Positions 5,412 to 56,347 of a stretch of DNA of 64,000 nt are shown here, piece after piece; position 1 is the stretch's first letter, and every line of letters begins with the position of its first letter. Both the position numbers and the translations under genes were made by a program. Under the pieces are notes generated by a model. The model was not told the origin of the DNA, did not search any database, and was given only the letters and a program-made list of their open reading frames with translations. The stretch lies in the NCBI GenBank assembly GCA_947623655.1, contig CANQHG010000007.1:20390-84389 (forward strand), given 5' to 3'. Origin of the DNA: an uncultured Clostridia bacterium (GTDB taxonomy: Bacteria; Bacillota; Clostridia; Christensenellales; Borkfalkiaceae).

Positions 5412-6319
5412 AAAAAATGCTTGTCATCTGCGGGCCGACCGCCTCGGGAAAGAGCGCTCTTGCGGTGGAGTGCGCCCGTCTTTTAAACGGCGAAATCGTC
5501 TCATGCGACGCACTTTTGGTCTACAGAGGGCTCAATATCGGCACCGCCAAGCCGACAGAAGAGGAAAAAAAGGGCATTCCGCACCATATGATCGACGTTA
5601 TCGATCCAACGGGCTCTTTTTCCGTCAGCGATTTTGAGCGGCAGGCGGTCCCTATCGTCGACGATATTTTTGCAAGAGGAAAGACGCCGATTCTCTGCGG
5701 CGGCACGGGATTTTATATCAATTCCATTCTCTACGCGCATGCGTTCGGCAATGCGCCCGCGGACAGCGCCGTGCGGGAGAAGTACGAAAAAATCGCCCGA
5801 GAAGAGGGGAAAGAAACACTTCATGCTCTCCTTGAAAAAGTCGACAGAGAGAGCGCGGAAAAGCTTCACAGTAACGATGTAAAACGCGTTGTGCGCGCGC
5901 TTGAAATTTATGAGTTGACAGGAAGAAAGAAGTCTGAACAGACGGACGGCAGTACGCCGCGCTATCCCTTTGAAGCCTTTGAATTTTTATATCCCCGCGA
6001 AGAGTTATACCGTCGCATTGAGGCGCGCGTCGATAAAATGTTTGCATGCGGGCTCGTTGATGAAGTTGAAAATCTTTTACAAAATGGCGTTTCCGAGGAT
6101 GCACAGTGCATGCAAGGGATTGGGTATAAAGAAGTCGTGGATGGCCTGAAAAATGGGTATTTGCATAGTACTATGTCAGACATAATAAAGAAAAATACCC
6201 GTAATTATGCGAAAAGACAGATAACTTTCTTTAAAAAAATGGAAAATCTACACGAAATTACGCCGTGCGAAGTCGAGTCGGCGGCAAGAGAGGTTGTTAA
6301 AATATATGAATGTAAATGA
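5408..6319 (+). CDS. miaA: tRNA dimethylallyltransferase MiaA
   Basis: P-loop ICGPTASGKSALAV, GGTGFY and TRNYAKRQITFF. ATGA overlap with the mutL stop. Confidence 0.93.
   Translation: MKKMLVICGPTASGKSALAVECARLLNGEIVSCDALLVYRGLNIGTAKPTEEEKKGIPHHMIDVIDPTGSFSVSDFERQAVPIVDDIFARGKTPILCGGTGFYINSILYAHAFGNAPADSAVREKYEKIAREEGKETLHALLEKVDRESAEKLHSNDVKRVVRALEIYELTGRKKSEQTDGSTPRYPFEAFEFLYPREELYRRIEARVDKMFACGLVDEVENLLQNGVSEDAQCMQGIGYKEVVDGLKNGYLHSTMSDIIKKNTRNYAKRQITFFKKMENLHEITPCEVESAAREVVKIYECK
6160..6187 (+). repeat. Dispersed palindromic motif, copy A (TTTGCATAGTACTATGTCAGACATAATA), inside miaA
   Basis: Read directly. Shares 16 identical nt with copies D and E, and 25 nt (1 mismatch) with copy C. Translated in the miaA frame as LHSTMSDII. 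Confidence 0.9.
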
Positions 6320-7529
6320 AATTATTTCCAATGCGGAAGCCGATTTAAAGGAACCTTTCCGTATGATTGACGAGGTTGCACTGTTCAATCAGGAAAAAGT
6401 TTTGAACGCGTTTCGTGAAGCGCGGATCGCGCTTCGTCATTTCTCCCCGTCGACGGGTTACGGCTACGGCGATGAGGGAAGAGAGGCTCTCGGAGACGTC
6501 TATGCGCATACGTTCGGCGCCGAACGTGCCATTGTCTCACCCGCGCTTCTTTCTGGAACGCATGCGCTTACGGTCGCTCTCTTTGGCGTTCTTCGCCCGG
6601 GAATGCGGATTTTATTTGTGACGGGAGCTCCCTACGATACGATTCGTCCCGTCATTTGGGGAGAGGGAAACGGTTCGCTTGGGGATTTCGGCGTGTCCTT
6701 TAACATTGTGTCTTTAACAAAAAGCGGGAAAATCGACCTCAAAAATGTCGCCGCTCATTTTGAGATGCGGCACTATGATATGATTTATGTCCAGCGTTCT
6801 CGCGGTTACGAGCTACGCGACGCTTTTACGGTTGAAGAAATCGGAAAACTTTGCAAATTTGTCCGTTCACACGGCTTTGAAGGTTGCATTTTTGTCGATA
6901 ACTGTTATGGCGAGTTTGTCGAAGAGACAGAACCGACCGAGGTCGGCGCCGATCTCATGGTCGGTAGTCTCATTAAGAATCCCGGAGGCGGGCTCGCTCC
7001 CACGGGCGGTTATATTGCAGGAAGAAAAAAGTATATTGAATTATGCGAAAACCGCTTGACTGCGCCGTCCGTAGGAGGGGAGATCGGGTCGTATGCCTAC
7101 GGCTATCAACCCTTTTTTCAAGGATTTTTCCTCGCGCCGCATGTCGTTGCACAGGCGCTCAAGGGCGGCCTTCTCATCGGAAAGTGTATGGAAATTCTCG
7201 GCTACAAAAATTTCCCGGCGACGGACAGGCCGCTTGCGGATATCACCCGTGCTATCCGTTTCAACACCGAAGAGGAGCTTTGCGCTTTTATCCAGTCTGT
7301 ACAAGACGTGTCTCCCGTCGATTCTTTCGTAAAACTGGAACCGTGGGATATGCCGGGGTACGACGATAAAGTCATTATGGCAGCGGGGACCTTTGTGGCG
7401 GGGGCGAGCATCGAACTCTCCGCCGACGCCCCCATTCGTAAACCCTACACCGCCTATTTTCAGGGTGGATTGACCTATGAGCACTGCAAGCTCGCCTGCC
7501 GCGCCGTGCTCGAAAAACTGATTCAATGA
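6306..7529 (+). CDS. Aluminium-resistance/YnbB-like PLP-dependent enzyme (Cys/Met metabolism family)
   Basis: Sequence STGYGYGDEGREALGDVYAHTFGAERAIV and a size of about 407 aa fit the YnbB-type family that often follows miaA(-hfq) in Firmicutes. The start could instead be TTG at 6294. Confidence 0.75.
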   Translation: MNVNEIISNAEADLKEPFRMIDEVALFNQEKVLNAFREARIALRHFSPSTGYGYGDEGREALGDVYAHTFGAERAIVSPALLSGTHALTVALFGVLRPGMRILFVTGAPYDTIRPVIWGEGNGSLGDFGVSFNIVSLTKSGKIDLKNVAAHFEMRHYDMIYVQRSRGYELRDAFTVEEIGKLCKFVRSHGFEGCIFVDNCYGEFVEETEPTEVGADLMVGSLIKNPGGGLAPTGGYIAGRKKYIELCENRLTAPSVGGEIGSYAYGYQPFFQGFFLAPHVVAQALKGGLLIGKCMEILGYKNFPATDRPLADITRAIRFNTEEELCAFIQSVQDVSPVDSFVKLEPWDMPGYDDKVIMAAGTFVAGASIELSADAPIRKPYTAYFQGGLTYEHCKLACRAVLEKLIQ

Positions 7530-7541
7530 TGTATGAAGTTA

Positions 7542-7581
7542 AAAAACAGCTCTTCCGAGGGAACGGAGGAGCTGTTTTTGT
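7542..7581. terminator. Bidirectional rho-independent terminator between convergent genes
   Basis: Stem AACAGCTCTTCCG / CGGAGGAGCTGTT with A-run and T-run flanks, between the YnbB-like gene end and the upp end. Confidence 0.65.
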
Positions 7582-7588
7582 ATCCATT

Positions 7589-8218
7589 TTATTTTGTTCC
7601 GAATAATCTGTCGCCTGCGTCGCCGAGACCGGGGAGAATATAGCCGTTTTCATTCAAGCATCGATCGAGGGTGGAGACGTAGATCTGCACGTCGGGATGT
7701 TCACGCGCCACTTTGTTGACCCCTTCGGGCGCGCCGATGATGGACATTAACTTGATATGTTTGCAACCGCGCTTTTTGAGCGCCGTAAGCGCGTCGCAGG
7801 CGGAACCGCCCGTCGCAAGCATGGGGTCGACAAGGAGAACCATTTTCTCTTGTATTCCCTCGGGCAATTTGCAGTAATATTCTTGCGGCTGAAGCGTCTT
7901 TTCGTCGCGGTACATGCCGATGTGGCCGACTTTTGCATTCGGGAAAACTTTATGTACGCCGCTCACCATGCCGAGTCCCGCGCGAAGTATGGGAACAATG
8001 GCGACACTTCCCTCGGGAACGCGGTATTGCCTTGTGACTTCGAGAGGGGTCTCCACGTCTACGGGCGCGAGCTCAACGTCGCGCATGCTCTCATATGTCA
8101 TGATGATCGTGATCTCTTCCACAAGTTCGCGGAACTCTTTCATGCCCGTGCTCTTGTCGCGCAATATGGCGATCTTGTGGTTGATCAAGGGGTGATCGAA
8201 GATAAAGACATTATTCAT
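7589..8218 (-). CDS. upp: Uracil phosphoribosyltransferase
   Basis: [33 protein letters not shown] and [12 protein letters not shown]. 209 aa from the internal ATG preceded by GAGGAAAA. The longer ORF extension is AT-rich leader. Confidence 0.93.
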
Positions 8219-8336
8219 ATCAGTTTTCCTCACAGTTCGGAAATAATCCTTGTCTATCATAGCATAAAAATCCCGATAATACAAGGTCATACAGACAAAA
8301 ATCCAAAAAAATTTAAAAAAATCGTTTCCGAAACTC

Positions 8337-8386
8337 TTGACAAAGGCCGTGGGCCGTGTTATCATGATGATATCAAAATGATATCA
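8337..8386 (+). promoter_or_regulatory. Sigma-A-like promoter plus two tandem TGATATCA palindromes upstream of the SPFH gene
   Basis: TTGACA (8337-8342), 17 nt spacer, TATCAT (8360-8365). TGATATCA occurs at 8368-8375 and 8379-8386 (11-bp period) around the expected +1. Confidence 0.45.
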
Positions 8387-8398
8387 CAATCGGAGGAT

Positions 8399-9361: not shown

Positions 9362-9369
9362 ATCGTGTT

Positions 9370-12148: not shown

Positions 12149-13387
12149 ATGGACGAATTTTTAAAGCTTTATCTTACGGGAAAACGGGCGGAGGATCTGA
12201 AAAAATTCAACCATTTCCGCACGGTCATCGCCCTTTTGGGGGCATTATTTGCCGTGATCCCCGTATTTATCAATCTTTTTGGAGCAAAAAACGCTCCCTT
12301 GAGCATTGTCTTTACCGTGCTCGGTTTTCTTTTGGAAACCGCGGCGGCCGTCCTTTCTTTCGTACAGAAAAAGTTTGTCGGTGCGCTTGTTGAGCTTGAG
12401 AATGCCGCGATTGAGATCGAAAAAGAGGGGGAAGAGCGGGAAAATTACAAAAAGCTCTATGAGGTCTGGCTAGAAACTTTCGAGAAACAGGATCTCCGCA
12501 TGGTATTCTCGGCCGTATTTACGGTACTTGGATTTGCGATCCTCGCCGCGGCCGTGCTAATTTCGACATATATGGAACTTCCCGAGATTGTCTTGCCCAT
12601 TGCGTGCATCGTCGCCGCCGTCGTTCTCACGACCCCCGCATTCATGCAAGCGACGGGCGAGGCGAAGGCGCGGGCTCTGCTCTATGAAAAGGCGGGGCGG
12701 GAGATCGACGAGATCAAGCGCAGTAAATTCGGCATTTCCGAAAGGAAGATCTTTTCGCAGTCCGAAAATGCCCGCGGCTATTCGATGCTTCCCGTGCCCG
12801 TTGCGATGTTTTTGAAGGACGGGACGGAAAGTGAGGACTTCCGCATCGTCAACAAGCGGAGCGGTATCGTCGCCGCCTTTCTCGGCCTCGTCTTTGTCGC
12901 CTTGATCTTTTTGATGGGATTCTGGGAGGAAATGGAGCCGACGGTCGCGTGGACGGTCATATTGAGCGTGTTTGCGGCCGCGATTGTGCTCTTTTTCGTG
13001 CTCGCCCTTCCACTTGAGGGCAGAAAGAAGGGGATCTACAGAAGAAATGAGCAAAAACTCACGGACAGCCGCGCAGATACCCTCCGCCGACAGCTGCAGG
13101 GCGCGTGGATCGCACAGCAGAGAAGGGGAAACATCATGTTTCTGTGCTTTCTGCTTGCGCCTCTTTTCATCGGCGTTATCTACGGGATCATCGGCCATGC
13201 GCTGGGGTATGAGCTCAGCCTCATCGTCGCGATCGGGTCAACGTTTATGATATGTCTCATTCCCGCGGCGATCGTTTCCTTGATCATTTGGACCATCATG
13301 TACGCCGTTTACCGCAAGCACGTGCGCCCGACGGAGGCCGAACTTCAAAAAATACTCGAAGAGGAGAGACCGGATGAACGACGGTGA
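12149..13387 (+). CDS. Hypothetical polytopic membrane protein
   Basis: 412-aa ORF starting 5 nt after the permease stop. Several hydrophobic helices separated by charged helical linkers. No family recognised. Confidence 0.55.
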   Translation: MDEFLKLYLTGKRAEDLKKFNHFRTVIALLGALFAVIPVFINLFGAKNAPLSIVFTVLGFLLETAAAVLSFVQKKFVGALVELENAAIEIEKEGEERENYKKLYEVWLETFEKQDLRMVFSAVFTVLGFAILAAAVLISTYMELPEIVLPIACIVAAVVLTTPAFMQATGEAKARALLYEKAGREIDEIKRSKFGISERKIFSQSENARGYSMLPVPVAMFLKDGTESEDFRIVNKRSGIVAAFLGLVFVALIFLMGFWEEMEPTVAWTVILSVFAAAIVLFFVLALPLEGRKKGIYRRNEQKLTDSRADTLRRQLQGAWIAQQRRGNIMFLCFLLAPLFIGVIYGIIGHALGYELSLIVAIGSTFMICLIPAAIVSLIIWTIMYAVYRKHVRPTEAELQKILEEERPDERR

Positions 13388-13562
13388 TAAGAGCAAAAAA
13401 CAGGTGCCGCTACGGCTCAGCCCGTCGCTCTACGCAGAGCTTTCAAAGTGGGCGGAGGAGGATTTCCGCTCGCTCAACGGGCAGATAGAATATCTTCTCT
13501 CGAACTGCGTCAAAAAGCGCAGAGGGGGGAAATATGCCAAAAAAGAGGAGGATGACGTATAA
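13374..13562 (+). CDS. Arc/CopG-like ribbon-helix-helix DNA-binding protein
   Basis: 62 aa. VPLRLSPSLYAELSKWAEEDFRSLNGQIEYLL fits the RHH beta-strand plus two-helix pattern. Overlaps the upstream gene by 14 nt. Confidence 0.6.
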   Translation: MNDGDKSKKQVPLRLSPSLYAELSKWAEEDFRSLNGQIEYLLSNCVKKRRGGKYAKKEEDDV

Positions 13563-13950
13563 TTCTCCCCGTTTTTGCCGTTTTGAAAAGTATTATGTCA
13601 GACATAAGATATGTCAAATCATAATTTGTTGCCCTTAAAGGAGCTTTTATGCCCATATCTTCAGGGATCGCGCTCGGCGTCAATGTTGCGCTGATCGTTA
13701 TATAGGCCATTTTCTTTGCGTGCGGATCCGTATCGTTTCGAGGAGCTTTGTCTACACGGTCAAAGGGAAACAGGTCGTTGTTTGTTTCAGTTTCAAAAAC
13801 GGGGCGCAGATTTTTGTGAACGGCTGACTCGAGGAGTAGTTTTAGGATGCCCATGCTTCCCGTTTTACGCTCCGTGCCACGATCGATGGGAAGGAATTCA
13901 AGGCCCATATCTCGATCGGCTTTTCCGTCAAGGTCGAAGCCTATTATCAT
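13510..13950 (-). CDS. Hypothetical protein (orphan, 146 aa)
   Basis: ATG preceded by AAAGGAGAG on the minus strand. No family recognised. Its 3' end overlaps the convergent RHH gene by 53 nt, so the true stop or extent is uncertain. Confidence 0.4.
   Translation of the reverse strand: MIIGFDLDGKADRDMGLEFLPIDRGTERKTGSMGILKLLLESAVHKNLRPVFETETNNDLFPFDRVDKAPRNDTDPHAKKMAYITISATLTPSAIPEDMGIKAPLRATNYDLTYLMSDIILFKTAKTGRIIRHPPLFWHISPLCAF
13583..13611 (+). repeat. Dispersed motif, degenerate copy B (TTGAAAAGTATTATGTCAGACATAAGATA)
   Basis: 24 of 29 positions match copy A. Contains the perfect 7-1-7 palindrome TTATGTC-A-GACATAA. Confidence 0.7.
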
Positions 13951-36949: not shown

Positions 36950-36999
36950 ACAGGATAGGAAAAATTTTCCCTGTTTTTTTGGCAAAAAAAGGGGAATGA

Positions 37000-37028
37000 T
37001 TGACATGGACCGTTTTCAATGCTATAAT
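37000..37028 (+). promoter_or_regulatory. Promoter placing +1 at or next to the dCMP deaminase ATG (leaderless candidate)
   Basis: TTGACA (37000-37005), 17 nt spacer, TATAAT (37023-37028). ATG at 37035 is 6 nt after the -10 box, with no SD sequence. Confidence 0.5.
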
Positions 37029-37034
37029 AGTGGC

Positions 37035-37478
37035 ATGGATAAGTGGGATAAAAGATTTATGAAACTCACCGAAGAGGTGGGGACTTGGGCAAGTTGCTTC
37101 CGCCGTAAAGTCGGGGCAGTCATTGTGCGAGATAACCGCGTGATGACGACGGGTTACAACGGAGCGCCGATGGGCATTCGGTCATGTATGGAAAAGGGCG
37201 AATGTCTGCGCGAGAAAATGAATATCGAGAGCGGAACACATCAGGAGCTATGCTTCGCCGCGCATGCGGAGCAAAACGCGATCATTCAAGCGGCGCGGTA
37301 CGGCATCAATATCGACGGATCTACGCTCTATTGTACGCACCAGCCTTGCGTTATTTGCGCCAAAATGATCATCAATGCCGGAATCAGACGGGTCGTCTAC
37401 AAAGAGGGATATCCCGATGAATTTTCCATGCAGCTCTTTCACGAAGCGGGCACGGATATAGAAAAATTTGAGGAGTAA
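37035..37478 (+). CDS. Deoxycytidylate (dCMP) deaminase, ComEB family
   Basis: Zinc motifs HAEQNAI and PCVICAKMI. The start at MDKWDKRFM matches the usual family N-terminus. Confidence 0.85.
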   Translation: MDKWDKRFMKLTEEVGTWASCFRRKVGAVIVRDNRVMTTGYNGAPMGIRSCMEKGECLREKMNIESGTHQELCFAAHAEQNAIIQAARYGINIDGSTLYCTHQPCVICAKMIINAGIRRVVYKEGYPDEFSMQLFHEAGTDIEKFEE

Positions 37479-37479
37479 T

Positions 37480-38001
37480 ATGGCAAAAAATCCTATTGTA
37501 ACGTTTGAAATGGCAAACGGGAAAATTTTTAAGGCAGAACTTTATCCCGAGATCGCTCCGAATACCGTGTATAACTTTCTTTCGCTCGTCCAAAAGGGCT
37601 TTTATAACGGTGTGATCTTCCATCGCGTCATCAAGGGCTTTATGATACAGGGCGGAGATCCGCTTGGCCTCGGCACAGGCGGGCCCGGATATCGCATCAA
37701 AGGGGAATTTCTTGCGAACGGGTTTAATAATACATTGAAGCACGAAAGAGGAGTTCTCTCCATGGCGAGGGCGCAGAATTTTGATTCGGCGGGTTCTCAA
37801 TTCTTTATCATGCACGCCGAAGCCGACTACCTCGATGGGCAGTATGCGGCGTTCGGCAAGATCGTCGAGGGCATGGAGGTTGTCGACGAGATCGCGTCCG
37901 CCCGCGTAGACTATCGCGATAAGCCGCTCACCGAACAGAAGATGCAAAAAGTGACGGCCGATACATTCGGCGTCGCCTATCCCGACCCGATAAAAGCATA
38001 A
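37480..38001 (+). CDS. ppiB: Peptidyl-prolyl cis-trans isomerase (cyclophilin type)
   Basis: FHRVIKGFMIQGGDP and GSQFFI. ATG follows GAGGAG. Confidence 0.92.
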   Translation: MAKNPIVTFEMANGKIFKAELYPEIAPNTVYNFLSLVQKGFYNGVIFHRVIKGFMIQGGDPLGLGTGGPGYRIKGEFLANGFNNTLKHERGVLSMARAQNFDSAGSQFFIMHAEADYLDGQYAAFGKIVEGMEVVDEIASARVDYRDKPLTEQKMQKVTADTFGVAYPDPIKA

Positions 38002-38013
38002 TAACGTATCGGA

Positions 38014-38038
38014 GCATAGTACTATGTCAGACAGAATA
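38014..38038 (+). repeat. Dispersed palindromic motif, copy C (GCATAGTACTATGTCAGACAGAATA), overlapping the purB start codon
   Basis: 25 nt with 1 mismatch to copy A. The motif ATG (38024) is the purB ATG. Confidence 0.88.
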
Positions 38039-39460
38039 CTGTATGAAAGCCCCTTGAGCACACGTTACGCGAGCAAAGAGATGCTGGAAAATTTCGGAGA
38101 CGAAAAGCGGTTCCGTCTTTGGAGAAAGTTATGGATCGCGCTAGCGGAAAGCGAGAGAGAACTCGGGCTCCCGATCACGCAGGCGCAGATCGATGAACTT
38201 AAAGCCCACGCCGACGATATCGACTACGAGAAAGCGGACGCATACGAACGCTCTGTGCGGCACGATGTCATGGCGCATGTCAAGGCGTACGGCGACGCCG
38301 CACCGTCGGCAAAGGGGATCATTCATCTCGGCGCAACAAGCTGTTTTGTGGATTGCAATGCCGAGCTCATCGTTTTGCGCGACGGGCTCGACATTCTTTT
38401 GAAAAAACTCGTCAACGTGATGGATAAACTCACGTCGTTTGCTCTGCGGTATAAAGACCTCCCGACGCTCGGATTTACGCACTTGCAGCCCGCCCAACTC
38501 ACTACGGTAGGCAAAAGGGCGACTCTGTGGCTTCAGGATCTGTTGCTCGACTATGAAAACCTTATTTCGCTCTATACACACTTCCGTTTGCGGGGCGTTA
38601 AGGGCACTACGGGTACGCAGGCAAGTTTTCTCGATTTGTTCGACGGCGACGAGTGGAAAGTCAAAGAACTTGAAAAACGGGTTTGCGCGAAGCTCGGCTT
38701 TGAACGGGTCTATGGCGTGACGGGACAAACTTATCCGAGGAAGTTCGACTATAATGTGCTGTGCGTTCTCTCGCAGATTGCACAGAGCGCGTATAAATTC
38801 AGCAACGACATCAGACTCTTGCAGAGCATGAAGGAGATCGAAGAACCTTTTGAAAAAGCGCAGATCGGTTCTTCGGCAATGCCCTATAAACGTAATCCGA
38901 TGCGGTGCGAACGTATGGGGGGTCTTTGCCGCTATATGCTCACGCTTCCCATGAACAGCGCCTTTACGTCGTCCACACAGTGGTTCGAACGCACCCTTGA
39001 CGACTCGGCAAACCGCCGCATCGTCAATGCGCAAGCTTTTCTTACTGTTGACGCAGTTCTCGAAATATATATGAACGTTGCGGACGACCTTGTTGTTCAT
39101 GAAAAAGTCATCGAAAAACATGTAGCGGAGGAACTTCCGTTCATGGCGACCGAGAACATCATCATGGAATGCGTGAAAGCGGGGGGCGACAGGCAGCAAC
39201 TACACGAGCGGATCCGCGTACTTTCTCAGGAAGCGGGCGCGCGTATCAAGGATGAGGGCGCAGACAACGACTTGTTAGAGGAAATCGCAAAGGATGAGTT
39301 GTTCGAGGCCGTGAAAGACAGGATCGGTGAGATCGTCGATGCGAAAAAATTTATCGGAAGAGCGCCGAAGCAGACGGAGGAATTCGTCGGAAAAGAGATT
39401 GCTCCCATTCTCGAAAGACACAAAAATTTGCTTGGCGCAAAGGGAAACGTCAAGGTTTGA
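38024..39460 (+). CDS. purB: Adenylosuccinate lyase
   Basis: SPLSTRYASKEM N-terminus, GSSAMPYKRNP signature, 478 aa. Confidence 0.94.
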   Translation: MSDRILYESPLSTRYASKEMLENFGDEKRFRLWRKLWIALAESERELGLPITQAQIDELKAHADDIDYEKADAYERSVRHDVMAHVKAYGDAAPSAKGIIHLGATSCFVDCNAELIVLRDGLDILLKKLVNVMDKLTSFALRYKDLPTLGFTHLQPAQLTTVGKRATLWLQDLLLDYENLISLYTHFRLRGVKGTTGTQASFLDLFDGDEWKVKELEKRVCAKLGFERVYGVTGQTYPRKFDYNVLCVLSQIAQSAYKFSNDIRLLQSMKEIEEPFEKAQIGSSAMPYKRNPMRCERMGGLCRYMLTLPMNSAFTSSTQWFERTLDDSANRRIVNAQAFLTVDAVLEIYMNVADDLVVHEKVIEKHVAEELPFMATENIIMECVKAGGDRQQLHERIRVLSQEAGARIKDEGADNDLLEEIAKDELFEAVKDRIGEIVDAKKFIGRAPKQTEEFVGKEIAPILERHKNLLGAKGNVKV

Positions 39461-39469: not shown

Positions 39470-40483
39470 ATGACGGTTTTGGTAACAGGCGGAGCCGGGT
39501 TTATCGGCTCACATACAGTCGTTGAACTTCTGAATGCGGGCTATGATGTTGTTGTTATCGATAACTTGTGCAATTCCAATCGTGAAGTGCTCGACCGTAT
39601 TAAGAAAATCACGGGCAGAGACGTCTATTTCTATGAGAACGACGTTCGGGATCGTGCGGCGCTTGAACTCATTTTTACGGCGTTCGATATCGAATGGGTC
39701 ATCCATTTCGCGGGTCTGAAAGCTGTGGGCGAGAGCGTGCAAAAGCCCATGGAATATTACGACAATAATTTGGTTTCCACACTCGTCCTCGCGGAGACTA
39801 TGCAGAAATTCGGCGTCAAAAAAATAGTTTTCTCTTCTTCTGCGACCGTTTATGGCGACCCGAGCGAGCTTCCGCTCCGCGAAACAAGCGCCATGAACCC
39901 CACGACCAATCCTTACGGAGCGACGAAAGTCATGCAGGAGAACATCTTAAAGGACATTTATACCTCCGATCATGAATGGACCGTGGCGCTTCTGCGTTAC
40001 TTTAATCCCGTGGGCGCCCATGAGAGCGGGCTCATAGGTGAAGACCCTAAGGGTATTCCGAACAATCTTATGCCTTATGTGGCGCAGGTCGCGAGCGGAA
40101 AGCTTAAGGAAATAGGCGTGTTCGGGAACGACTATCCCACGCACGATGGCACGGGCGTCAGAGACTATATCCACGTCGTCGATCTGGCCAAAGGACATCT
40201 GGCGGCAATCGAGAAGATAAATGCGGCCGGCGTTTATGTCTATAATCTCGGCACGGGGAACGGATACAGCGTGCTCGACATGATCAAGGCGTTCTCAAAG
40301 GCATGCGGAAAAGAGCTGCCTTATGTAATCAAACCGAGAAGGGCGGGGGACATCGCAACTTGTTATGCATCAGCGGAGAAAGCGGAAAAAGAGCTCGGAT
40401 GGCATGCGGCGTACGATCTCGAGAAGATGTGCGCGGACCAATGGAATTGGCAGAAGAAGAATCCAAACGGCTATAATTGTTGA
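39470..40483 (+). CDS. galE: UDP-glucose 4-epimerase
   Basis: VTGGAGFIGSH, YGATK (YxxxK) and the typical 337-aa length. Confidence 0.94.
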   Translation: MTVLVTGGAGFIGSHTVVELLNAGYDVVVIDNLCNSNREVLDRIKKITGRDVYFYENDVRDRAALELIFTAFDIEWVIHFAGLKAVGESVQKPMEYYDNNLVSTLVLAETMQKFGVKKIVFSSSATVYGDPSELPLRETSAMNPTTNPYGATKVMQENILKDIYTSDHEWTVALLRYFNPVGAHESGLIGEDPKGIPNNLMPYVAQVASGKLKEIGVFGNDYPTHDGTGVRDYIHVVDLAKGHLAAIEKINAAGVYVYNLGTGNGYSVLDMIKAFSKACGKELPYVIKPRRAGDIATCYASAEKAEKELGWHAAYDLEKMCADQWNWQKKNPNGYNC

Positions 40484-40491
40484 TTTTTTAA

Positions 40492-40521
40492 ATTTTGCAT
40501 AGTACTATGCGTGACATAATA
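40492..40521 (+). repeat. Dispersed palindromic motif, copy D (ATTTTGCATAGTACTATGCGTGACATAATA)
   Basis: 30 nt with 1 mismatch to copy E. Lies between the galE stop (40483) and its terminator. Confidence 0.9.
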
Positions 40522-40531
40522 TTTGTAAAAG

Positions 40532-40555
40532 AACGGCATTTTGCCGTTTTTTTTC
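40532..40555 (+). terminator. galE terminator
   Basis: ACGGCA-TTT-TGCCGT followed by T8. Confidence 0.7.
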
Positions 40556-52014: not shown

Positions 52015-52040
52015 GTTTTTCAGAAATAAAGGAGTTCAAA

Positions 52041-52394
52041 ATGCGCAATTTTATTGTAACGGTAAACGGCAGACAGTATGAAGTCGGCGTTGAAGAGATC
52101 GGCGAAACGAATGTGCCTAAGGCGGTTCCGCTTGCGGCGCCTGTTCCCGCGGCGGCGCCCTCTCCCGCCCCTGCAGGCGGAAAGAGGACGAAAGTGCTCT
52201 CTCCTTTCCCCGGGCTCATTAAAAATCTGCTTGTGGAAAACGGCGCTTCCGTCAAAAAAGACCAGCCCATTCTCGTGCTCGAGGCTATGAAAATGGACAA
52301 CGACATCACTTCGCCCTGCGATGGGACGGTAACATTCAATGTGCAGAAAGGGGCGAACGTTGAGTCGGACGCACTTCTTGCGATGATCGGTTAA
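52041..52394 (+). CDS. Biotin carboxyl carrier protein (biotinyl domain)
   Basis: Ala/Pro linker then the LEAMKMDNDI biotinylation motif. ATG follows AAGGAG. Confidence 0.88.
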   Translation: MRNFIVTVNGRQYEVGVEEIGETNVPKAVPLAAPVPAAAPSPAPAGGKRTKVLSPFPGLIKNLLVENGASVKKDQPILVLEAMKMDNDITSPCDGTVTFNVQKGANVESDALLAMIG

Positions 52395-52406
52395 GCGGAG
52401 AGGCCC

Positions 52407-53588
52407 ATGCAAAATTTACTTGCGCTCGACATCGGAAAGATCTTTTCCGATTTGTGGAACTCCATGGGACTTTCGCAGGGGACTTGGCAGAACTATGTCA
52501 TGCTCGCCATCTCCTTTGTTTTAATGTTCCTGGCGATCGTCAAGAAGTTTGAGCCGATGCTCCTGTTGCCGATCGCATTCGGCATGTTCCTCATCAATAT
52601 TCCCGGCGCCGAAAAGGTGCTATGGGGCACTTACACAGACGAGGCGCATACCTACGATCTTGTGGAAAACAGGGGACTTTTGTGGTACCTCTATTATGGC
52701 GTGGATAAAGTGATCTATCCGCCGCTCATTTTCTTGGGAATCGGGGCAATGACTGACTTCGGTCCGCTTATCGCAAATCCCAAGAGCATGCTCATCGGGG
52801 CGGGAGCGCAGCTCGGCATCTTTATCGCGCTCTTCGGCGCTATGTTGCTCGGATTCGGAGGAGCGGAAGCCGCGGCGATCGCTATCATCGGCGGTGCGGA
52901 CGGCCCTACGGCGATCTACGTTGCAAAAACGCTTGCCGAACATCTTTTGCCCATGATCGCGATTGCGGCCTATTCCTATATGGCGCTCATTCCCGTCATT
53001 CAAAAACCCGTTATGCGACTTCTTACGACGAAAAAGGAGCGCATGATCCGCATGAAACCGCTTCGCCAGGTCACAAAAGCGGAGAAAATCATTTTCCCGA
53101 TCGCGATTACGTTGGTCGTCGGGCTCATCCTTCCCGATGCGATCCCGCTTCTCGGAATGTTGATGCTCGGCAATTTGTTCCGCGAATGCGGTGTGGTTGA
53201 GAGACTTTCCTCGCAGGCGCAGAACGGTCTCATGAACACGGTAACGATTTTTCTCGGCATTGCGGTCGGCTGTAAGGCAAAGGGGGATATTTTCCTCACG
53301 ACGGATACGTTGAGCATCATCGTTATCGGCGTCGTCGCATTTTACTGCGGCACGATCGGCGGGATTCTCACGGCAAAAATCATGTGTAAACTTACGCACG
53401 GGCAGATCAATCCGCTCATTGGCTCGGCAGGCGTTTCGGCTGTGCCCATGGCGGCAAGAATTTCCGAGGATGTCGGGAGGGAGTACGATCCCTCTAACCA
53501 TCTTCTGATGCACGCAATGGGGCCGAATGTCGCCGGCGTTATTGGTTCGGCGCTGGCGGCAGGTATTCTGCTTGCGATCCCTTGGTAG
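52407..53588 (+). CDS. Na+-translocating decarboxylase beta subunit (OadB/MmdB/GcdB family)
   Basis: Polytopic membrane protein with IIGGADGPTAIY and SAGVSAVPMAAR, typical of the beta subunit. Confidence 0.88.
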   Translation: MQNLLALDIGKIFSDLWNSMGLSQGTWQNYVMLAISFVLMFLAIVKKFEPMLLLPIAFGMFLINIPGAEKVLWGTYTDEAHTYDLVENRGLLWYLYYGVDKVIYPPLIFLGIGAMTDFGPLIANPKSMLIGAGAQLGIFIALFGAMLLGFGGAEAAAIAIIGGADGPTAIYVAKTLAEHLLPMIAIAAYSYMALIPVIQKPVMRLLTTKKERMIRMKPLRQVTKAEKIIFPIAITLVVGLILPDAIPLLGMLMLGNLFRECGVVERLSSQAQNGLMNTVTIFLGIAVGCKAKGDIFLTTDTLSIIVIGVVAFYCGTIGGILTAKIMCKLTHGQINPLIGSAGVSAVPMAARISEDVGREYDPSNHLLMHAMGPNVAGVIGSALAAGILLAIPW

Positions 53589-53611
53589 AGCGAAAAGAAG
53601 GAGTTTAATGT

Positions 53612-55063
53612 ATGTCTAAGAAAGTTTTGATCATGGATACGATCTTGCGCGACGCGCACCAATCGCATGCCGCAACGCGTATGCGGACGGAGCAGATGAT
53701 TCCCGTGCTTGCGCAACTCGATGAAGTCGGTTACTATTCACTCGAGGGCTGGGGCGGCGCAACGTTCGATACTTGCATGAGATTTTTGAATGAAGATCCT
53801 TGGGAAAGGTTGCGAACGCTCCGCACTTATTTGAAGAAGACGCCCATTCAGATGCTTTTGCGCGGGCAAAATCTTTTGGGCTATCGGAATTATGCGGACG
53901 ATCTTGTCGATAAGCTCGTCGAAAAATGTTTTGAGAACGGCATCGGCGTCATTCGCGTCTTTGACGCGCTCAACGATCCGCGCAACATCGAAGCTTCGAT
54001 GAAGGCGATCAAAAAATACGGTGGACAGCTCAGAGCGACCGATCCCGCCCGCGGTATTGCCGAGGCGGCAATTTCCTATACGACGAGCCCCGTCCACACC
54101 CTCGAATATTTTGTAAAACTTGCAAAGACCTACGAAGATATGGGCGCCGACAATATCTGTATCAAGGATATGGCAAATCTCCTTTTGCCGTTTGACGCCT
54201 ATAAGCTTGTCTCCGCGCTGAAAAAATCTCTCCGACCCGAAACGAAACTGCATCTTCACACGCATAATACGACAGGTACGGGCGATATGGTTAATCTGAT
54301 GGCGATCGAAGCGGGCGTTGATATCGTCGACACTGCGCTTTCGCCTCTGGCTAACGGTACATCTCAGCCTGCGACCGAGTCGCTTGTGGCGACGCTTCGC
54401 GGCACAGAATACGATACGGGCATCGATCTCAATAAATTGATTCCGATAGCCGAACATTTCAAAAAAGTTGCTTCCCAACTCGAAAAAGACGGTTCTCTCA
54501 ACCCGAAAGTGAGGCAAGTGGATGTGAAAACACTCATCTATCAGGTCCCGGGCGGCATGCTTTCCAACCTCATGAACCAACTCAAAAAAGCCGGTAAAGA
54601 GGATAAATTATCGGAAGTGCTTGCGGAAGTTCCCAATGTCCGCCGTGACTGCGGGTATCCGCCTCTCGTCACGCCGTCGTCGCAGATCGTCGGAACGCAG
54701 GCCGTGATGAATGTTGTCATGGGCGAGCGGTATAAGATGGTGACGAAAGAGACCAAAGATCTGTTCGCGGGAAAATACGGCCAGCTTCCGATGCCTGTCG
54801 ATAAAGATGTTGCGGAAAAGGTCCTCAAGGGGGAAAAGCCCATCACGCACCGCCCGGCAGACGATTTGGCGCCCGAATTCGACAGGCTGAAAGAGGAGCT
54901 GTTCCAAAAGGGATTTTACGCGCAGCGGGAAGATATTCCCGACGAAGATGTGCTTTCCTACGCGTCTTTTCCCGAAGTCGCCGAGAACTTTTTCAAATGG
55001 AGAAAGGCTTCGCGTGAGGGCGTCGATATGGATATGGCAAAGACGGGCGTCTATCCCGTCTGA
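53612..55063 (+). CDS. Oxaloacetate decarboxylase alpha / transcarboxylase 5S-type carboxyltransferase, without biotinyl domain
   Basis: ILRDAHQS, HLHTHNTTG (HMGL-like TIM barrel) and YQVPGGM. 483 aa with no AMKM motif. Confidence 0.88.
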   Translation: MSKKVLIMDTILRDAHQSHAATRMRTEQMIPVLAQLDEVGYYSLEGWGGATFDTCMRFLNEDPWERLRTLRTYLKKTPIQMLLRGQNLLGYRNYADDLVDKLVEKCFENGIGVIRVFDALNDPRNIEASMKAIKKYGGQLRATDPARGIAEAAISYTTSPVHTLEYFVKLAKTYEDMGADNICIKDMANLLLPFDAYKLVSALKKSLRPETKLHLHTHNTTGTGDMVNLMAIEAGVDIVDTALSPLANGTSQPATESLVATLRGTEYDTGIDLNKLIPIAEHFKKVASQLEKDGSLNPKVRQVDVKTLIYQVPGGMLSNLMNQLKKAGKEDKLSEVLAEVPNVRRDCGYPPLVTPSSQIVGTQAVMNVVMGERYKMVTKETKDLFAGKYGQLPMPVDKDVAEKVLKGEKPITHRPADDLAPEFDRLKEELFQKGFYAQREDIPDEDVLSYASFPEVAENFFKWRKASREGVDMDMAKTGVYPV

Positions 55064-55123
55064 GAAAAAGTGTAAAAACAGATGAATGCGAGGGCATTGC
55101 CCTCGTTTTCTATGGGGATCGTG

Positions 55124-56347
55124 ATGAAAGTTGTTGTCATCGGCGGGGGCGCGAGCGGACTCATGGCGGCATATGCCGCCGCAGAGAACGGAAACGACGT
55201 GACGCTCGTCGAAAAGAATGAAAAACTTGGGAAAAAGATATATATCACGGGCAAGGGAAGATGTAACGTGACGAACGATTGCGCCCCCGATGAATTTTTG
55301 CAGAACGTCGTGCACGGTGAAAAATTCATGCGCGGTGCGATCTATCGTTTTCCGCCTCAACGGCTGATGGATTTTCTGGAACGCGAGGGGTTGCCGTTGA
55401 CTGTCGAGAGGGGGAATCGTGTCTTTCCCGCCTCCAATCACGCGAGCGATGTGACAAAAACGCTTGAAAAAGCATGCAAAAGGGTGGGTGTTACCTTCGA
55501 TTTTAACACTGAAGTTTTGAAAATTGACATTTTGCATAGTACTATGCGTGACGTAATAACCAATAAAGGCATTTTGGAATGCGATGTAGCTATTCTTGCG
55601 ACAGGAGGGCTATCGTATCCGTCTACGGGTTCGACGGGAGACGGATATCGAATTGCCGGCGAGCTCGGGCATACCATCGTTCCATGTAAACCGTCTCTTA
55701 CAGGCCTTAATTGTAGGGGAGATTTTATGGCGGTGCAGGGCGTTTCTGTCAAAAATGCCGTTCTTACAGCGAAACAGGGGTCAAAAGTCATTTTTTCAGA
55801 ACTCGGCGAGTTGTTGTTTACGCATTACGGCGTGAGCGGACCTCTTGTCCTCACTCTGTCCGCACTTGTCAACCGCATGTCCTTTGAAAATTTAAGTATT
55901 TTTGTTGATTTCAAGCCCGCGCTCGACGATGTTGCGCTCGAGATGCGGCTTAAGAGAGATCTGTCTGAGCGGAAAAACGAGCAGATGAAGAGCGTGATCC
56001 GCGGTCTTTTGCCGGCAAGTTTGGGGATTTCTGTATTGGAGTATGCGCATATCCCGCTTTGGAAGCAGGCAAATGCCCTCACAAAGGAGAAACGGCGGGA
56101 TCTCTTGCATCTACTCAAGGCCTTTCCGCTCTATCCCGTTTCTCTGCGCGGGTTCAACGAGGCTGTCGTAACGTCGGGCGGAGTCGACCTTAAGGAAGTC
56201 GATCCCAGGACGATGGAGAGCAAGAAAATAAAGGGGCTGTATCTGTGCGGCGAAGTTCTCGATATCGACGCATTTACGGGCGGTTTTAATCTTCAGCTTG
56301 CTTTTGCAACGGGGTATATGGCGGGAAAATCCGTCGGAACGAAATAG
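55124..56347 (+). CDS. NAD(P)/FAD-dependent oxidoreductase, HI0933/BaiN-like
   Basis: VVVIGGGASGLMAA, ITGKGRCNVTN, ATGGLSYPSTGSTGDGY and DAFTGGFNLQ. Alternative ATGs at 55082 and 55112. Confidence 0.85.
   Translation: MKVVVIGGGASGLMAAYAAAENGNDVTLVEKNEKLGKKIYITGKGRCNVTNDCAPDEFLQNVVHGEKFMRGAIYRFPPQRLMDFLEREGLPLTVERGNRVFPASNHASDVTKTLEKACKRVGVTFDFNTEVLKIDILHSTMRDVITNKGILECDVAILATGGLSYPSTGSTGDGYRIAGELGHTIVPCKPSLTGLNCRGDFMAVQGVSVKNAVLTAKQGSKVIFSELGELLFTHYGVSGPLVLTLSALVNRMSFENLSIFVDFKPALDDVALEMRLKRDLSERKNEQMKSVIRGLLPASLGISVLEYAHIPLWKQANALTKEKRRDLLHLLKAFPLYPVSLRGFNEAVVTSGGVDLKEVDPRTMESKKIKGLYLCGEVLDIDAFTGGFNLQLAFATGYMAGKSVGTK
55529..55558 (+). repeat. Dispersed palindromic motif, copy E (ATTTTGCATAGTACTATGCGTGACGTAATA), inside the flavoprotein gene
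   Basis: 30 nt with 1 mismatch to copy D. Translated in frame as LHSTMRDVI. Confidence 0.9.

Follow-up and report, generated by a model that had tools for sequence, protein, structure and literature searches.

The five motif copies carried by a 64-kb stretch of genomic DNA from a Borkfalkiaceae bacterium (the window, by which the whole stretch is meant) are members of a clade-specific element of ~100 bp, made of a ~25-bp core and helically phased A/T flanks. Its nucleotide sequence is under purifying selection within coding constraint, and neither paralogy nor random insertion accounts for it. The element corresponds to none of the promoters, RNAs, mobile repeats, uptake signals or chromosome-organisation sites described so far and is regarded here as a new polar DNA element that is predicted to be protein-binding or curved.

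A search of the window with TTGCATAGTACTATGNNNGACATAA, allowing up to 3 mismatches, gave exactly five matches on the + strand only (Table 1), and no match was found in 100 dinucleotide-preserving shuffles of the window. The five co-oriented copies of the preliminary description were all recovered, and its host assignments (miaA, purB start, galE 3' end and an HI0933-like flavoprotein gene) agree with ours, the miaA product carrying the Pfam IPPT domain and PurB the Lyase_1 and ADSL_C domains. Motif position 1 (G1) of copy A corresponds to 6163. Size was misjudged in that description, as the element is far larger than the 28-30 bp given: phased A/T tracts reach from about -45 to +56, with A/T in 17/20 peak positions versus 3/15 trough positions for copy A, 19/20 versus 6/15 for copy B, 18/20 versus 9/15 for copy D and 16/20 versus 8/15 for copy E, and more weakly in 12/20 versus 4/15 for copy C.

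Table 1. Positions of the five copies, their cores and their flanks in the window
Feature	Position	Strand	Remarks
Copy A, pattern match	6161-6185	+	0 mismatches to TTGCATAGTACTATGNNNGACATAA
Copy A, core TTTGCATAGTACTATGTCAGACATAATA	6160-6187	+	inside miaA, peptide LHSTMSDII
Copy A, extended footprint	6118-6218	+	-45 to +56, phased A/T tracts
Copy B, pattern match	13583-13607	+	3 mismatches to TTGCATAGTACTATGNNNGACATAA
Copy B, core TTTGAAAAGTATTATGTCAGACATAAGA	13582-13609	+	degenerate, T9 variant
Copy B, extended footprint	13540-13640	+	
Copy C, pattern match	38012-38036	+	3 mismatches to TTGCATAGTACTATGNNNGACATAA
Copy C, core GGAGCATAGTACTATGTCAGACAGAATA	38011-38038	+	overlaps purB start
Copy D, pattern match	40495-40519	+	0 mismatches to TTGCATAGTACTATGNNNGACATAA
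Copy D, core	40494-40521	+	between galE stop and intrinsic terminator
Copy D, extended footprint	40452-40552	+	
Copy E, pattern match	55532-55556	+	1 mismatch to TTGCATAGTACTATGNNNGACATAA
Copy E, core	55531-55558	+	inside HI0933-like flavoprotein gene (55082-56347), peptide LHSTMRDVI
Copy E, extended footprint	55489-55589	+	

Copy B lies 20 nt past the stop of a 62-aa ribbon-helix-helix (RHH)-like ORF (13374-13562), and its A-tract at -13 to -10 is supplied by an upstream hairpin and the T-run of the latter. Its right half is nearly symmetric and the - strand reading is almost as good, so that its strand is partly ambiguous. It had been called degenerate, which its 3 mismatches bear out, yet it is a genuine copy, kept at the orthologous place in a relative (L150, position 18196) where it reads TTTGCGAAGTATTATGTCTGACATAATA. 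In copy C, the purB Shine-Dalgarno GGAG stands in place of the usual TTT and purB starts at the ATG of the motif (38024), giving the N-terminus MSDRILYESPLSTRYASKEM; an orthologous copy was found at the purB start in L096. In the same way, copy D, which is preceded by the galE stop (40483) 11 nt upstream and followed 6 nt downstream by the terminator (40527-40553), has orthologous copies at the galE 3' end in L042 and L047, and copy E has orthologous in-gene counterparts in L034, L071, L089 and L111.

At least 118 stretches, drawn from 55 or more species-level assemblies, carry the core; all belong to one clade of gut Clostridia (Borkfalkiaceae, Gallimonas, Coproplasma and uncultured Clostridia), and chance would give ~4. 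With up to 6 mismatches, 163 copies were counted in 917 kb versus 0 in a reversed-sequence control, and no copy was observed in 334 kb from more distant relatives or in viral contigs. Copies are syntenic, at orthologous positions across species, with a density of ~1 per 10-20 kb (5 in 64 kb in the window). Enrichment and lineage specificity, on which the preliminary description had staked its proposal, both hold against chance expectation, reversed control and distant relatives. As the loci were ascertained by an exact-match scan, conservation of the core among them is partly forced; motif-unbiased evidence comes only from MiaA homologues and orthologues chosen by protein, from orthologous DNA including L150 and from the 334 kb of distant relatives. 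Assembly artefact or contamination was excluded, since the motif occurs in at least 55 independent assemblies from several projects and assemblers and since codons are replaced without a change in gene length.

In MiaA orthologues that were picked by protein and not by motif, the codons AGT ACT ATG NNN GAC ATA ATA are invariant, while the variable codon is CGT, TTT, TAT or TCA, encoding R, F, Y or S. The earlier proposal of selection on the nucleic acid under coding constraint is borne out by these codons, which do not change while the middle one changes the amino acid. The peptide site, defined by a loose pattern, is kept in 119 of 120 MiaA homologues of 66-100% identity, and its T/I alternation would reflect ACT versus ATT, i.e. 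the C9/T9 difference that the DNA copies display. MiaA proteins of no more than 49% identity have at the motif place an unrelated sequence of equal length, which means that nothing was inserted and that codons were overwritten. As described before, a single forward frame is open (TTG CAT AGT ACT ATG NNN GAC ATA ATA), the other two running into TAG and TAA.

Transposition of a small selfish or mobile element (REP/RAYT, MITE or Rickettsia RPE type) would yield copies that are dispersed, partly palindromic and mainly intergenic, as they are here, with the occasional tandem or partial extra copies that were also observed. Nevertheless, this reading is largely refuted and its probability is close to negligible: host genes are of equal length, copies are fixed at orthologous sites in at least 55 species with uniform orientation, neither target-site duplications nor longer shared flanks were found, and sequence identity is maintained across family-level divergence, for which we know of no precedent among REP and MITE families. 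The in-frame inserted palindrome of Rickettsia, raised as a precedent in the preliminary description, fails on the overwritten codons, and its recombinase target on copies that are co-oriented, kilobases apart and syntenic across species. Enterobacterial REP/BIME sequences are likewise short palindromes repeated at the 3' ends of operons and between cistrons, and architectural or topological proteins, gyrase and IHF for example, have been reported to bind them. However, REPs are G+C-rich hairpins, species-specific, strictly extragenic, of mixed orientation and mobilised by RAYT transposases, whereas the present element is A+T-rich, also found inside genes, fixed at orthologous sites and uniformly oriented.

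The core is invariant over AGTACTATG-N3-GACATAATA, and its left arm, TTTGCAT, is weaker. Three CATA(G/A)TA-type half-sites form two overlapping dyads, CATAGTACTATG and TACTATG-N5-CATAATA, as had been described, with centres 8.5 bp apart; a symmetric unit TACTATGTC-W-GACATAGTA recurs in arrays. From -45 to +56, A/T content rises and falls between ~0.33 and 0.85-0.99 every ~10-10.5 bp, A-tracts being phased over 4-5 turns upstream and 3 turns downstream of the core, and the periodicity is equal or stronger where flanking hairpins are absent. At positions -13 to -10, 73 of 78 non-redundant contexts have nothing but A/T (background 12.5%, p ~1e-59), and in 62 of these 73 the bases form an AnTn tract that lacks a TpA step (background 61%, p ~1e-5).

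An RNA element, in which the sense transcript folds into a GCAUAGUACUAUGC or a UACUAUG-NNNGA-CAUAAUA hairpin as a target for binding or cleavage, was also considered, either for processing and stability or for leaderless mRNAs starting at the embedded AUG. It would suit the nearly always sense orientation in transcribed contexts, the placement of copies in 5' and 3' UTRs as well as between cistrons, and the embedded ATG that is the start codon of purB, rsmF-like, ABC ATPase and YcxB-like genes, without a Shine-Dalgarno sequence in the rsmF-like ones. Yet the covariation test gave 0 compensatory changes for hairpin P1 and only a marginal signal for P2 (7 cells, a value reached in 23 of 500 shuffles), most copies keep a C9/A23 mismatch, and a search of Rfam found no family at the motif. 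Moreover, the 10-10.5-nt A/T periodicity of the flanks, with interchangeable A- and T-runs lacking TpA, is a property of duplex DNA, and in ~20 cases a terminator T-run sets in 12-13 nt ahead of the copy, which would leave the copy out of terminated transcripts. An RNA function is accordingly very improbable, and the processing or stability hairpin suggested earlier is not supported. Phased A-tracts without TpA, together with the lack of convincing RNA covariation, point to an element that would act as bent or wrapped double-stranded DNA.

Most copies (80%) are intergenic and sit after stop codons, beside terminators, before ribosome-binding sites or over start codons; next to terminators, either a T-run begins 12-13 nt ahead of position 1 or a hairpin begins 1-15 nt past the core. 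Gene calls were made with a crude caller and several are wrong (L117, L077, rsmF-like genes). Orientation follows genes: in-gene copies, with miaA, dxs and spoIIIAE among the hosts, are sense in 22 cases, all in one frame, versus at most 2 antisense, and spacers between co-directional genes hold 45 sense versus 3-4 antisense copies.

For the ~35 copies that overlap a start codon or precede a ribosome-binding site and its start codon by no more than 31 nt, the operator of a clade-specific global transcription factor or an alternative-sigma promoter for the downstream genes may be thought of. These genes often belong to nucleotide metabolism or translation (purB, folA, dgt-dnaG, thrS, rsmF-like), as do a phosphoribosyltransferase read by eye as PyrE and a Ham1-family NTPase read as rdgB. 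In addition, the core contains the -10-like and -35-like words TTGCAT, TACTAT and CATAAT, its boxes GCATA and CATAATA resemble forespore-sigma boxes, and strong Gram-positive promoters typically have phased A-tracts upstream. However, TTGCAT is 14 bp from CATAAT, GCATA is 13 bp from CATAATA where forespore sigmas have 17-18, promoters of the genome are canonical (TTGACA-17-TATAAT), and the start implied by CATAAT lands inside the ribosome-binding site or coding sequence, for instance in L016 and purB. About 30 copies lie in called convergent spacers with no co-oriented gene downstream and only 6 in divergent, promoter-containing ones; in thrS leaders the copy is downstream of the T-box terminator, and in-gene copies are 770-790 nt from the next gene. 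An operator or promoter is thus distinctly improbable.

Uptake signals such as the Haemophilus USS and the Neisseria DUS are closer in several respects. A surface receptor of the competence pilus would prefer the core, phased A-tracts would let the DNA kink on entry, and molecular drive would keep copies perfect without any function inside the cell. This would explain a long motif conserved family-wide, tolerated in one reading frame, common beside terminators and absent from viral contigs, and an element inert in the cell could be harmless over starts and ribosome-binding sites and in essential genes. USS and DUS are also family-specific, tolerated in genes in certain frames, often found beside terminators and present as near-perfect copies at many loci. 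The USS core is flanked by helically phased A/T tracts as well (PMC3458573). Here, however, the A-tracts stand on both sides, the core is far longer, its information content exceeds by far the amount that known uptake receptors recognise, and the host is a Gram-positive, spore-former-like clade of Clostridia. At ~1 per 10-20 kb, the motif is about ten-fold sparser than USS or DUS, which occur at ~1 per kb, and to our knowledge sequence-specific uptake is described in no Gram-positive bacterium. Above all, the polarity relative to genes (~70 sense versus ~5 antisense) has no equivalent that we know of among uptake sequences and is unexplained by coding capacity, since one or two frames stay open in the reverse complement; the Neisseria DUS paper does not discuss strand or orientation. 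An uptake signal is therefore unlikely.

Transcription-linked and replication-linked polarity are confounded, with 89 of 97 copies on the GC-skew leading strand and 53 of 58 sense; only 4 copies lie in informative contexts next to lagging-strand genes, and they split 2:2. A replication-polar site, comparable to Tus-Ter/RTP-Ter fork barriers or to KOPS/SRS, would take its orientation from the fork or a translocase, gene agreement being a by-product of gene-strand bias. The five window copies on the G-rich + strand and the asymmetric ~30-bp architecture fit such a site, Bacillus RTP-Ter A and B sites having a similar layout of two overlapping imperfect dyads. Polar chromosome-translocation signals could be useful to a clade with sporulation genes (spoIIIAE and a PRC-barrel protein that presumably resembles YlmC). 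Still, in convergent and divergent spacers the copy is nearer its co-oriented gene in 28 of 36 cases (p = 0.001), which fork direction alone does not predict, and the copies of L081, L038, L093 and the L045/L012 contig are aligned with a lagging-strand gene instead of with the GC skew. The Ter sites known so far are few (~10) and near the terminus, and KOPS, SRS and Chi are 5-8-mers kept statistically rather than 25-mers at fixed orthologous sites. A replication-polar site is hence rather improbable.

Compared with RTP-Ter and Tus-Ter, which are also asymmetric and polar sites of ~23-30 bp, the element differs in that 64 kb hold 5 copies, that these sit at gene boundaries, as they do in many species, and that their positions are tied to the neighbouring gene. 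SlmA-SBS (GTGAGTACTCAC), Noc-NBS, RefZ-RBM, RacA-ram and ParB-parS are likewise dispersed, lineage-conserved protein sites tolerated in ORFs, and the AGTACT centre of the left dyad is presumably shared with the SlmA site. Those sites are nevertheless simple, unoriented palindromes that number from a few to some tens in a genome, as a rule lie mostly within genes and lack phased A-tract flanks of 100 bp, whereas the present core is asymmetric, polar and largely intergenic at gene boundaries. Uptake sequences and chromosome-organisation sites, between which the preliminary description did not choose, remain the closest analogues, each failing at least one defining feature (polarity or copy pattern).

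The reading that we favour, tentatively and at somewhat less than even chances, is a directional nucleoprotein "punctuation" site on a ~100-bp double-stranded DNA element predicted to be protein-bound. A sequence-specific protein, in the simplest case as two dimers side by side, would bind the core with high affinity, and the A-tract flanks would curve the DNA intrinsically or let it wrap around the bound protein. The A-tract-rich side would face the incoming RNA polymerase of its own transcription unit. Gene boundaries (past stop codons, flush with terminator T-runs, before ribosome-binding sites, over start codons) would be preferred, and in coding sequence the element would be written by substitution where the protein tolerates the peptide xxS(T/I)MxDII. 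Several points weigh on this proposal. RNA polymerase should be hindered by a tight 100-bp complex that covers starts and ribosome-binding sites or sits within miaA, dxs and spoIIIAE, so that a permanently occupied site is difficult to envisage; intrinsic curvature can arise from phased A-tracts without any protein; and the RHH gene adjoining copy B belongs to a family wider than the motif clade.

Roadblock operators (PurR in E. coli purB, intragenic CodY and CcpA) as well as mTERF1 and Reb1/TTF-I are also protein-DNA complexes within or at the end of transcription units. They act on elongating polymerase, the polar ones (mTERF1, Reb1/TTF-I) depending on orientation, and RTP-Ter, with two dimers on its overlapping dyads, can also block RNA polymerase directionally. 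The present element is known by sequence and placement, blocking of transcription being a proposal, and we know of no dedicated genome-wide family of roadblock sites in bacteria. Beyond the preliminary description, the analysis adds the ~100-bp phased A/T flanks, the family-wide distribution and the gene-linked polarity. In our reading, the element would most likely serve as a roadblock, insulator or architectural site, at which co-directional transcription would pass and the boundaries of transcription units would be marked or shielded.

The pattern TTGCATAGTACTATGNNNGACATAA, with up to three mismatches allowed, was found at five positions of the window, all on the plus strand, and gave no match in 100 dinucleotide-preserving shuffles of the window. 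The 14-bp palindrome alone matched four times in the window against 0.04 expected. The five plus-strand copies of the preliminary description (A to E, see Table) were thus recovered, and the host genes that it had named were confirmed with Pfam. Its claim that the motif has a single stop-free frame also held, the only open reading being TTG CAT AGT ACT ATG NNN GAC ATA ATA. Copies occur at a density of 5 per 64 kb in the window and of 2 per ~20 kb in loci picked without the motif. Copy B lies 20 nt 3' of the stop of a 62-aa ribbon-helix-helix (RHH)-like ORF, and its orthologous position is kept in the relative L150 (L numbers designate stretches of relatives' DNA); its right half is nearly symmetric and reads almost as well on the minus strand. 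The window also contains an ORF for chorismate mutase and cytidylate kinase, a fusion that unusually combines an enzyme of aromatic amino acids with one of pyrimidine nucleotides.

Table. Coordinates of the motif copies and of the associated features in the window and in relatives
Feature	Sequence	Position	Strand	Context
Copy A	window	6161	+	inside miaA (Pfam)
Copy B	window	13583	+	
Copy C	window	38012	+	supplies the purB ATG (Pfam)
Copy D	window	40495	+	3' of galE (Pfam), 5' of terminator at 40527-40553
Copy E	window	55532	+	inside HI0933-like flavoprotein gene (Pfam)
RHH ORF	window	13374-13562	+	62 aa, Arc/CopG-like; overlaps stop of preceding 412-aa membrane-protein gene
Putative gene	window	13510-13950	-	146 aa, good ribosome-binding site, no Pfam match
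Gene series	window	36996-39460		TadA-like deaminase, cyclophilin-type PPIase, purB
Promoter	window	37000-37028		consensus, extended
Promoter	window	36949-36922	-	consensus, divergent, towards groES-groEL
Promoter	window	40856		canonical
Fusion ORF	window	56385-57419	+	344 aa: type I chorismate mutase (Pfam CM_1, aa 12-122), full cytidylate kinase (aa 128-340)
Array	L006	7387-7560		
Array	L022	5596-5770		
Array	L061, L018			
Array	L036	1504-1600		
Double site	L119	~1430		
Double site	L120	~1001		
Double site	L123	~1455		
Double site	L136	~1430		
Double site	L150	~1508		between thiI and penicillin-binding-protein gene
Double site	L053, L055			
SpoIIIAE/Dxs/PRC-barrel locus	L039	~1393		
SpoIIIAE/Dxs/PRC-barrel locus	L108	~7591		
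SpoIIIAE/Dxs/PRC-barrel locus	L032	~6991		
SpoIIIAE/Dxs/PRC-barrel locus	L010, L050, L062			
22-codon ORF	L003	~1850-1960		AGGAGG ahead
22-codon ORF	L099			AGGAGG ahead

Enrichment and conservation, which the preliminary description had proposed to check in relatives, were both found. An exact scan with GCATAGTACTATGNNNGACRKAA over one genome per species (596 Gb) returned at least 118 stretches against about 4 calculated chance matches. The stretches listed all came from one group, namely uncultured Clostridia MAGs from rabbit, chicken, mouse and human gut, Candidatus Borkfalkia and Borkfalkiaceae, Gallimonas, Coproplasma and 'uncultured Christensenella', and they represented at least 55 distinct assemblies; many genomes had multiple copies per contig. 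This number of independent assemblies excludes the assembly artefact that had been considered as a possible refutation. The exact MiaA protein of the window is not recorded, and its organism is placed only through relatives; syntenic contigs are present in ENA/NCBI metagenome assemblies, the one at 78% identity belonging to the rabbit-gut MAG Lapin-008. In 917 kb of relatives' sequence, 163 positions had at most six mismatches to the consensus (27 nt, 24 of them specified), and none did in the reversed-sequence control. No match was observed in viral contigs, nor in 334 kb around miaA of distant bacteria (MiaA at most 49% identity). No description of the motif was found in the literature on the sequence, on Borkfalkia or on phased or palindromic repeats in Clostridia.

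Orthologous positions repeatedly have a copy: inside genes (miaA, the flavoprotein gene, spoIIIAE, dxs), at the 3' ends of galE and of a PRC-barrel protein gene, in the thrS leader, upstream of dgt-dnaG and at start codons (purB and rsmF-like genes). Because these loci had been found through the motif, samples picked without it were also used. The residues xx-S-(T/I)-M-x-D-I-I were present at the site in 119 of the 120 best MiaA homologues (66-100% identity), the T/I alternation presumably corresponding to ACT vs ATT in the DNA, the C9/T9 difference among DNA copies (numbered from the G of GCATAG as position 1). In miaA orthologues retrieved by protein (L119-L123, L136, L150), AGT ACT ATG NNN GAC ATA ATA was invariant, rare ATA codons included, except for one change in L136 (GAC ACA ATA), while NNN was CGT, TTT, TAT or TCA and encoded R, F, Y or S; the left arm drifted (TTA CAC, TTG CAA, TTA CAG). 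Selection thus acts on the nucleotides of the motif under coding constraint, as had been proposed from the window. MiaA of other lineages has unrelated residues at the site and equal length, and the motif was therefore written over existing codons rather than inserted. Mobile REP/RAYT elements, MITEs and the Rickettsia RPE are rejected since MiaA is equally long whether or not it carries the motif, sites are syntenic across species and orientation is uniform; the RPE-like in-frame element suggested earlier is abandoned with them. Among relatives, in-gene hosts include SpoIIIAE (Pfam Spore_III_AE) and a transketolase-family gene identified as Dxs, in which the copy is in the C-terminal domain. 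The PRC-barrel protein with a copy at the 3' end of its gene is one that we take to resemble YlmC. The clade thus possesses sporulation genes.

The motif loci were collected by exact match, which in part forces the conservation of their core; beyond the forced positions, 121 distinct copies shared T at -3 to -1, Y14, S15, W16, T24 and A25. The middle triplet is essentially free, with TCA, CGT, TCT, TGT, CCA, CCT and CAT in the scan and also TTT and TAT in the unbiased loci. In degenerate copies the left arm is lost first and AGTACTATG-N3-GACATAAT is kept. The standard core, a stretch of ~25 bp, consists of three CATA(G/A)TA half-sites, rightward at 2-8, leftward at 7-13 and rightward at 19-25, which make two overlapping dyads centred at 7.5 and 16. 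Despite the dyads, what is conserved lacks overall symmetry, comprising three half-sites plus an A-tract upstream of them. A symmetric unit, TACTATGTC-W-GACATAGTA, was found in arrays upstream of dgt-dnaG and elsewhere. These arrays consist of one full and three or four partial or symmetric copies (TACTATGTCWGACATAGTA) in the ~320-nt spacer upstream of the dgt (HD dGTPase)-dnaG operon, and a similar array was seen 3' of a recG-like gene, identified by eye from the gene's 3' end. Double sites, CATAGTACTCTGTCTGACATAGTACTATGC, with a copy on both strands, were also observed in seven stretches; that of L150 lies ~9 kb upstream of miaA, just past the window's left end.

The A/T flanks are phased over an extended element of ~100 bp, and this is a new finding on the element. 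In 73 of 78 non-redundant contexts, the block from -13 to -10 consists wholly of A/T (background 12.5%), and 62 of these 73 blocks are AnTn tracts without a TpA step (background 61%), A-runs and T-runs being interchangeable. More widely, the A/T fraction swings from ~0.33 to 0.85-0.99 every 10-10.5 bp, with peaks at -43.5, -32.5, -21, -11.5, -2, 22.5, 32.5, 42.5 and 53.5, and is about symmetric around position 11, the midpoint between the dyads. TpA-free A-tracts in ~10.5-bp helical phase over several turns, as in curved or wrapped DNA, are thus present. Terminators do not cause the oscillation, because it is equal or stronger in subsets without flanking hairpins; when a terminator is present, its T-run serves as the -13 to -10 tract. 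The window copies follow the same phasing, copy A having A/T at 17 of 20 peak vs 3 of 15 trough positions. A tract period equal to the helical repeat of DNA, together with the equivalence of A and T, points to a property of the duplex (curvature or wrapping) rather than of RNA.

The RNA processing or stability hairpin suggested in the preliminary description finds no convincing covariation. Of the two candidate hairpins, P1 had 0 compensatory cells and P2 had 7, a count reached by 23 of 500 shuffles, with a C9/A23 mismatch in most copies. Rfam at the gathering threshold detected only tRNA-Trp in the whole window and nothing at the motif, and neither a K-turn RNA nor complementarity to the 16S anti-Shine-Dalgarno was recognized by eye. 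A housekeeping promoter is rejected. In sigma-70-type promoters the -35 and -10 hexamers are 16-18 bp apart, and the spacing of TTGCAT and CATAAT is 14 bp; moreover, many copies, among them ~30 called in convergent spacers, lack a co-oriented gene further on, some are downstream of the thrS T-box terminator, and the implied transcription start would land in ribosome-binding sites or coding sequences. Canonical TTGACA-17-TATAAT promoters exist in the window at three other places. For the sporulation sigma factors F, G, E and K, whose boxes (GnATA-type -35 and CATAnTA-type -10) are spaced by 14-18 bp, GCATA and CATAATA are present but 13 bp apart instead of 17-18 bp, and such a promoter is rejected. 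For sigma-54, inspection by eye revealed no GG 10-11 nt upstream of GC, where the all-A/T block lies. In the T-box leaders of thrS from eight species (L002, L008, L025, L026, L057, L065, L066, L091), the motif is located 3' of the T-run of the T-box terminator and 5' of the ribosome-binding site of thrS.

Gene context was taken from a 3-periodic Markov gene caller, which is crude and misses or miscalls some genes; by its calls, about 20% of the copies are in genes and 80% are intergenic. Of the in-gene copies, 22 are sense (on the strand of the host or adjacent gene), all in the sole open frame, vs three called antisense, one a miscall (L077, in fact miaA) and the other two on the 5' border of a divergent ORF. 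The bias is not accounted for by coding capacity, because one or two frames are open in the reverse complement. Between co-directional genes, 45 copies are sense vs four antisense, one of which is a miscall and another, L013, a real exception; overall, ~70 copies are sense vs ~5 antisense. Convergent spacers hold far more copies (~30 called) than divergent ones (6), and within these spacers the copy is closer to the co-oriented gene in 28 of 36 cases (p = 0.001). Typical sites are 7-25 nt past a stop codon or 0-15 nt ahead of a Shine-Dalgarno sequence; terminator-linked sites are 1-15 nt 5' of the hairpin or 12-13 nt past the start of the T-run. The ATG of the motif is the start codon of purB, of an rsmF-like gene (without Shine-Dalgarno sequence), of ABC ATPases and of a YcxB-like protein. 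In L003 and L099, an intergenic copy that would otherwise count as 'antisense' is crossed by a 22-codon ORF, MIAFFGLLHSTMSDITHVFLR, which may be due to chance.

Uptake signals (USS/DUS) occur about equally in both orientations, independently of gene direction, at roughly one per kilobase. An uptake signal of the Haemophilus type is the strongest rival explanation of the element, which is similarly over-represented and lineage-specific in both coding and non-coding DNA. Harmless copies over start codons would be accounted for by such a signal, yet it predicts neither the polarity nor the low density of the copies. Phased T-tracts, in-gene tolerance and association with terminators are common to the element and the Haemophilus signal (PMC3458573).

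A possible rival is a replication-polar site, Ter-like or orienting a translocase. The leading strand defined by GC skew holds 89 of 97 copies, a figure confounded with gene strand: as most copies are on the leading strand, replication and transcription polarity cannot be separated by it. The discordant loci favour genes. Copies beside lagging-strand genes in informative contexts number only four, split 2:2, one being a miscall. The within-spacer bias, three loci that follow a lagging-strand gene (L081, L038, L093) and a contig whose genes and copies oppose the skew suggest, without being conclusive, that polarity is linked to genes. On that contig, CALVXB010000003.1 (L045, L012, L013), genes and copies are mostly on the plus strand and the skew is slightly negative in three separate 8-kb blocks; either GC skew is unreliable in that genome or the lagging strand carries a long run of genes. 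The classical Ter systems (Tus-Ter, RTP-Ter), with few sites in two opposed sets round the terminus, are rejected since copies are too many and not terminus-restricted, five being co-oriented in 64 kb of uniform GC skew.

Chromosome-organisation palindromes (parS, NBS, SBS, RBM, ram, matS) are simple dyad-symmetric sites of 12-20 bp, each with a dedicated binding protein. The core CATAGTACTATG has no similarity to the parS, NBS and ram consensus sequences, and has only AGTACT in common with the SlmA SBS GTGAGTACTCAC. Likewise, no match to ComK AT-boxes or to the Fis, IHF and Lrp consensus was seen. A gyrase or topoisomerase IV cleavage site at the GTAC centre is rejected because the preferences of these enzymes are opposite to the flanking bases and because a 25-mer confined to one clade is not expected of a universal enzyme. 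The element thus resembles several known kinds of dispersed chromosomal signal and fails a defining test of each; it is filed under a general kind, as a putative dispersed, lineage-specific protein-binding or structural DNA site.

The neighbouring RHH protein was rejected as the binder and stays no more than a weak lead. Its ORF stop is followed within 20-27 nt by a motif copy in the window, L150 and L072 and by none in L119 or L136, and its family, with 1554 homologues of which some are labelled Oscillospiraceae, extends beyond the motif clade. An identical protein sequence is present in ENA/NCBI metagenome assemblies. The putative 146-aa gene on the opposite strand, annotated by public gene callers, overlaps the tail of the RHH gene and crosses copy B, where it reads LMSDIIL.

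We infer protein binding, wrapping and a function of the element as follows. The core would be a high-affinity site for a sequence-specific protein and would act as double-stranded DNA. The two dyads, 8.5 bp apart, could receive two adjacent dimers, of the kind formed by RHH, TetR-like or RTP-like proteins, and the phased A-tract arms would bend or wrap ~100 bp. The element may then be a directional nucleoprotein punctuation site, that is a roadblock, an insulator or an architectural site. Because direction is coupled to the transcription unit and unit boundaries are preferred, this punctuation reading is the one we favour, tentatively and at somewhat less than even confidence. A polymerase stalled at a roadblock would keep its RNA 3' end at roughly the place of the obligatory weak-hybrid A/T block, 12-13 nt upstream of the core edge, a coincidence that is suggestive only.

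A bolder and rather unlikely extension is that the element represents a new 'punctuation' class of bacterial chromosomes. Each genome would have directional nucleoprotein sites of ~100 bp, about a hundred or more in number, at gene boundaries and in tolerant genes. A clade-specific protein would recognize them and wrap their phased A-tract DNA, and they would serve as one-way barriers or insulators for transcription, supercoil diffusion or loop-extruding motors. In bacteria, such a class would be the counterpart of oriented insulator or terminator-protein sites.

For practical purposes, Borkfalkiaceae-like contigs can be binned with the motif as a diagnostic marker. The motif also calls for caution in gene calling, since it has an in-frame TTG and ATG and provides the real start codon of some genes. 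We know of no uptake signal in a Gram-positive lineage, and the element would be the first if it proved to be one instead. The element unites properties known until now only one by one: its core is long and invariant, its A-tracts are phased over 100 bp in a nucleosome-like manner, its polarity is strict and it is placed at the boundaries of transcription units. Throughout the family, the selection on it is strong enough to impose nine codons on MiaA, SpoIIIAE, Dxs and a flavoprotein. If a protein reads the element, it would constitute a new genome-wide cis/trans system in a very common and almost uncultured group of gut Clostridia.
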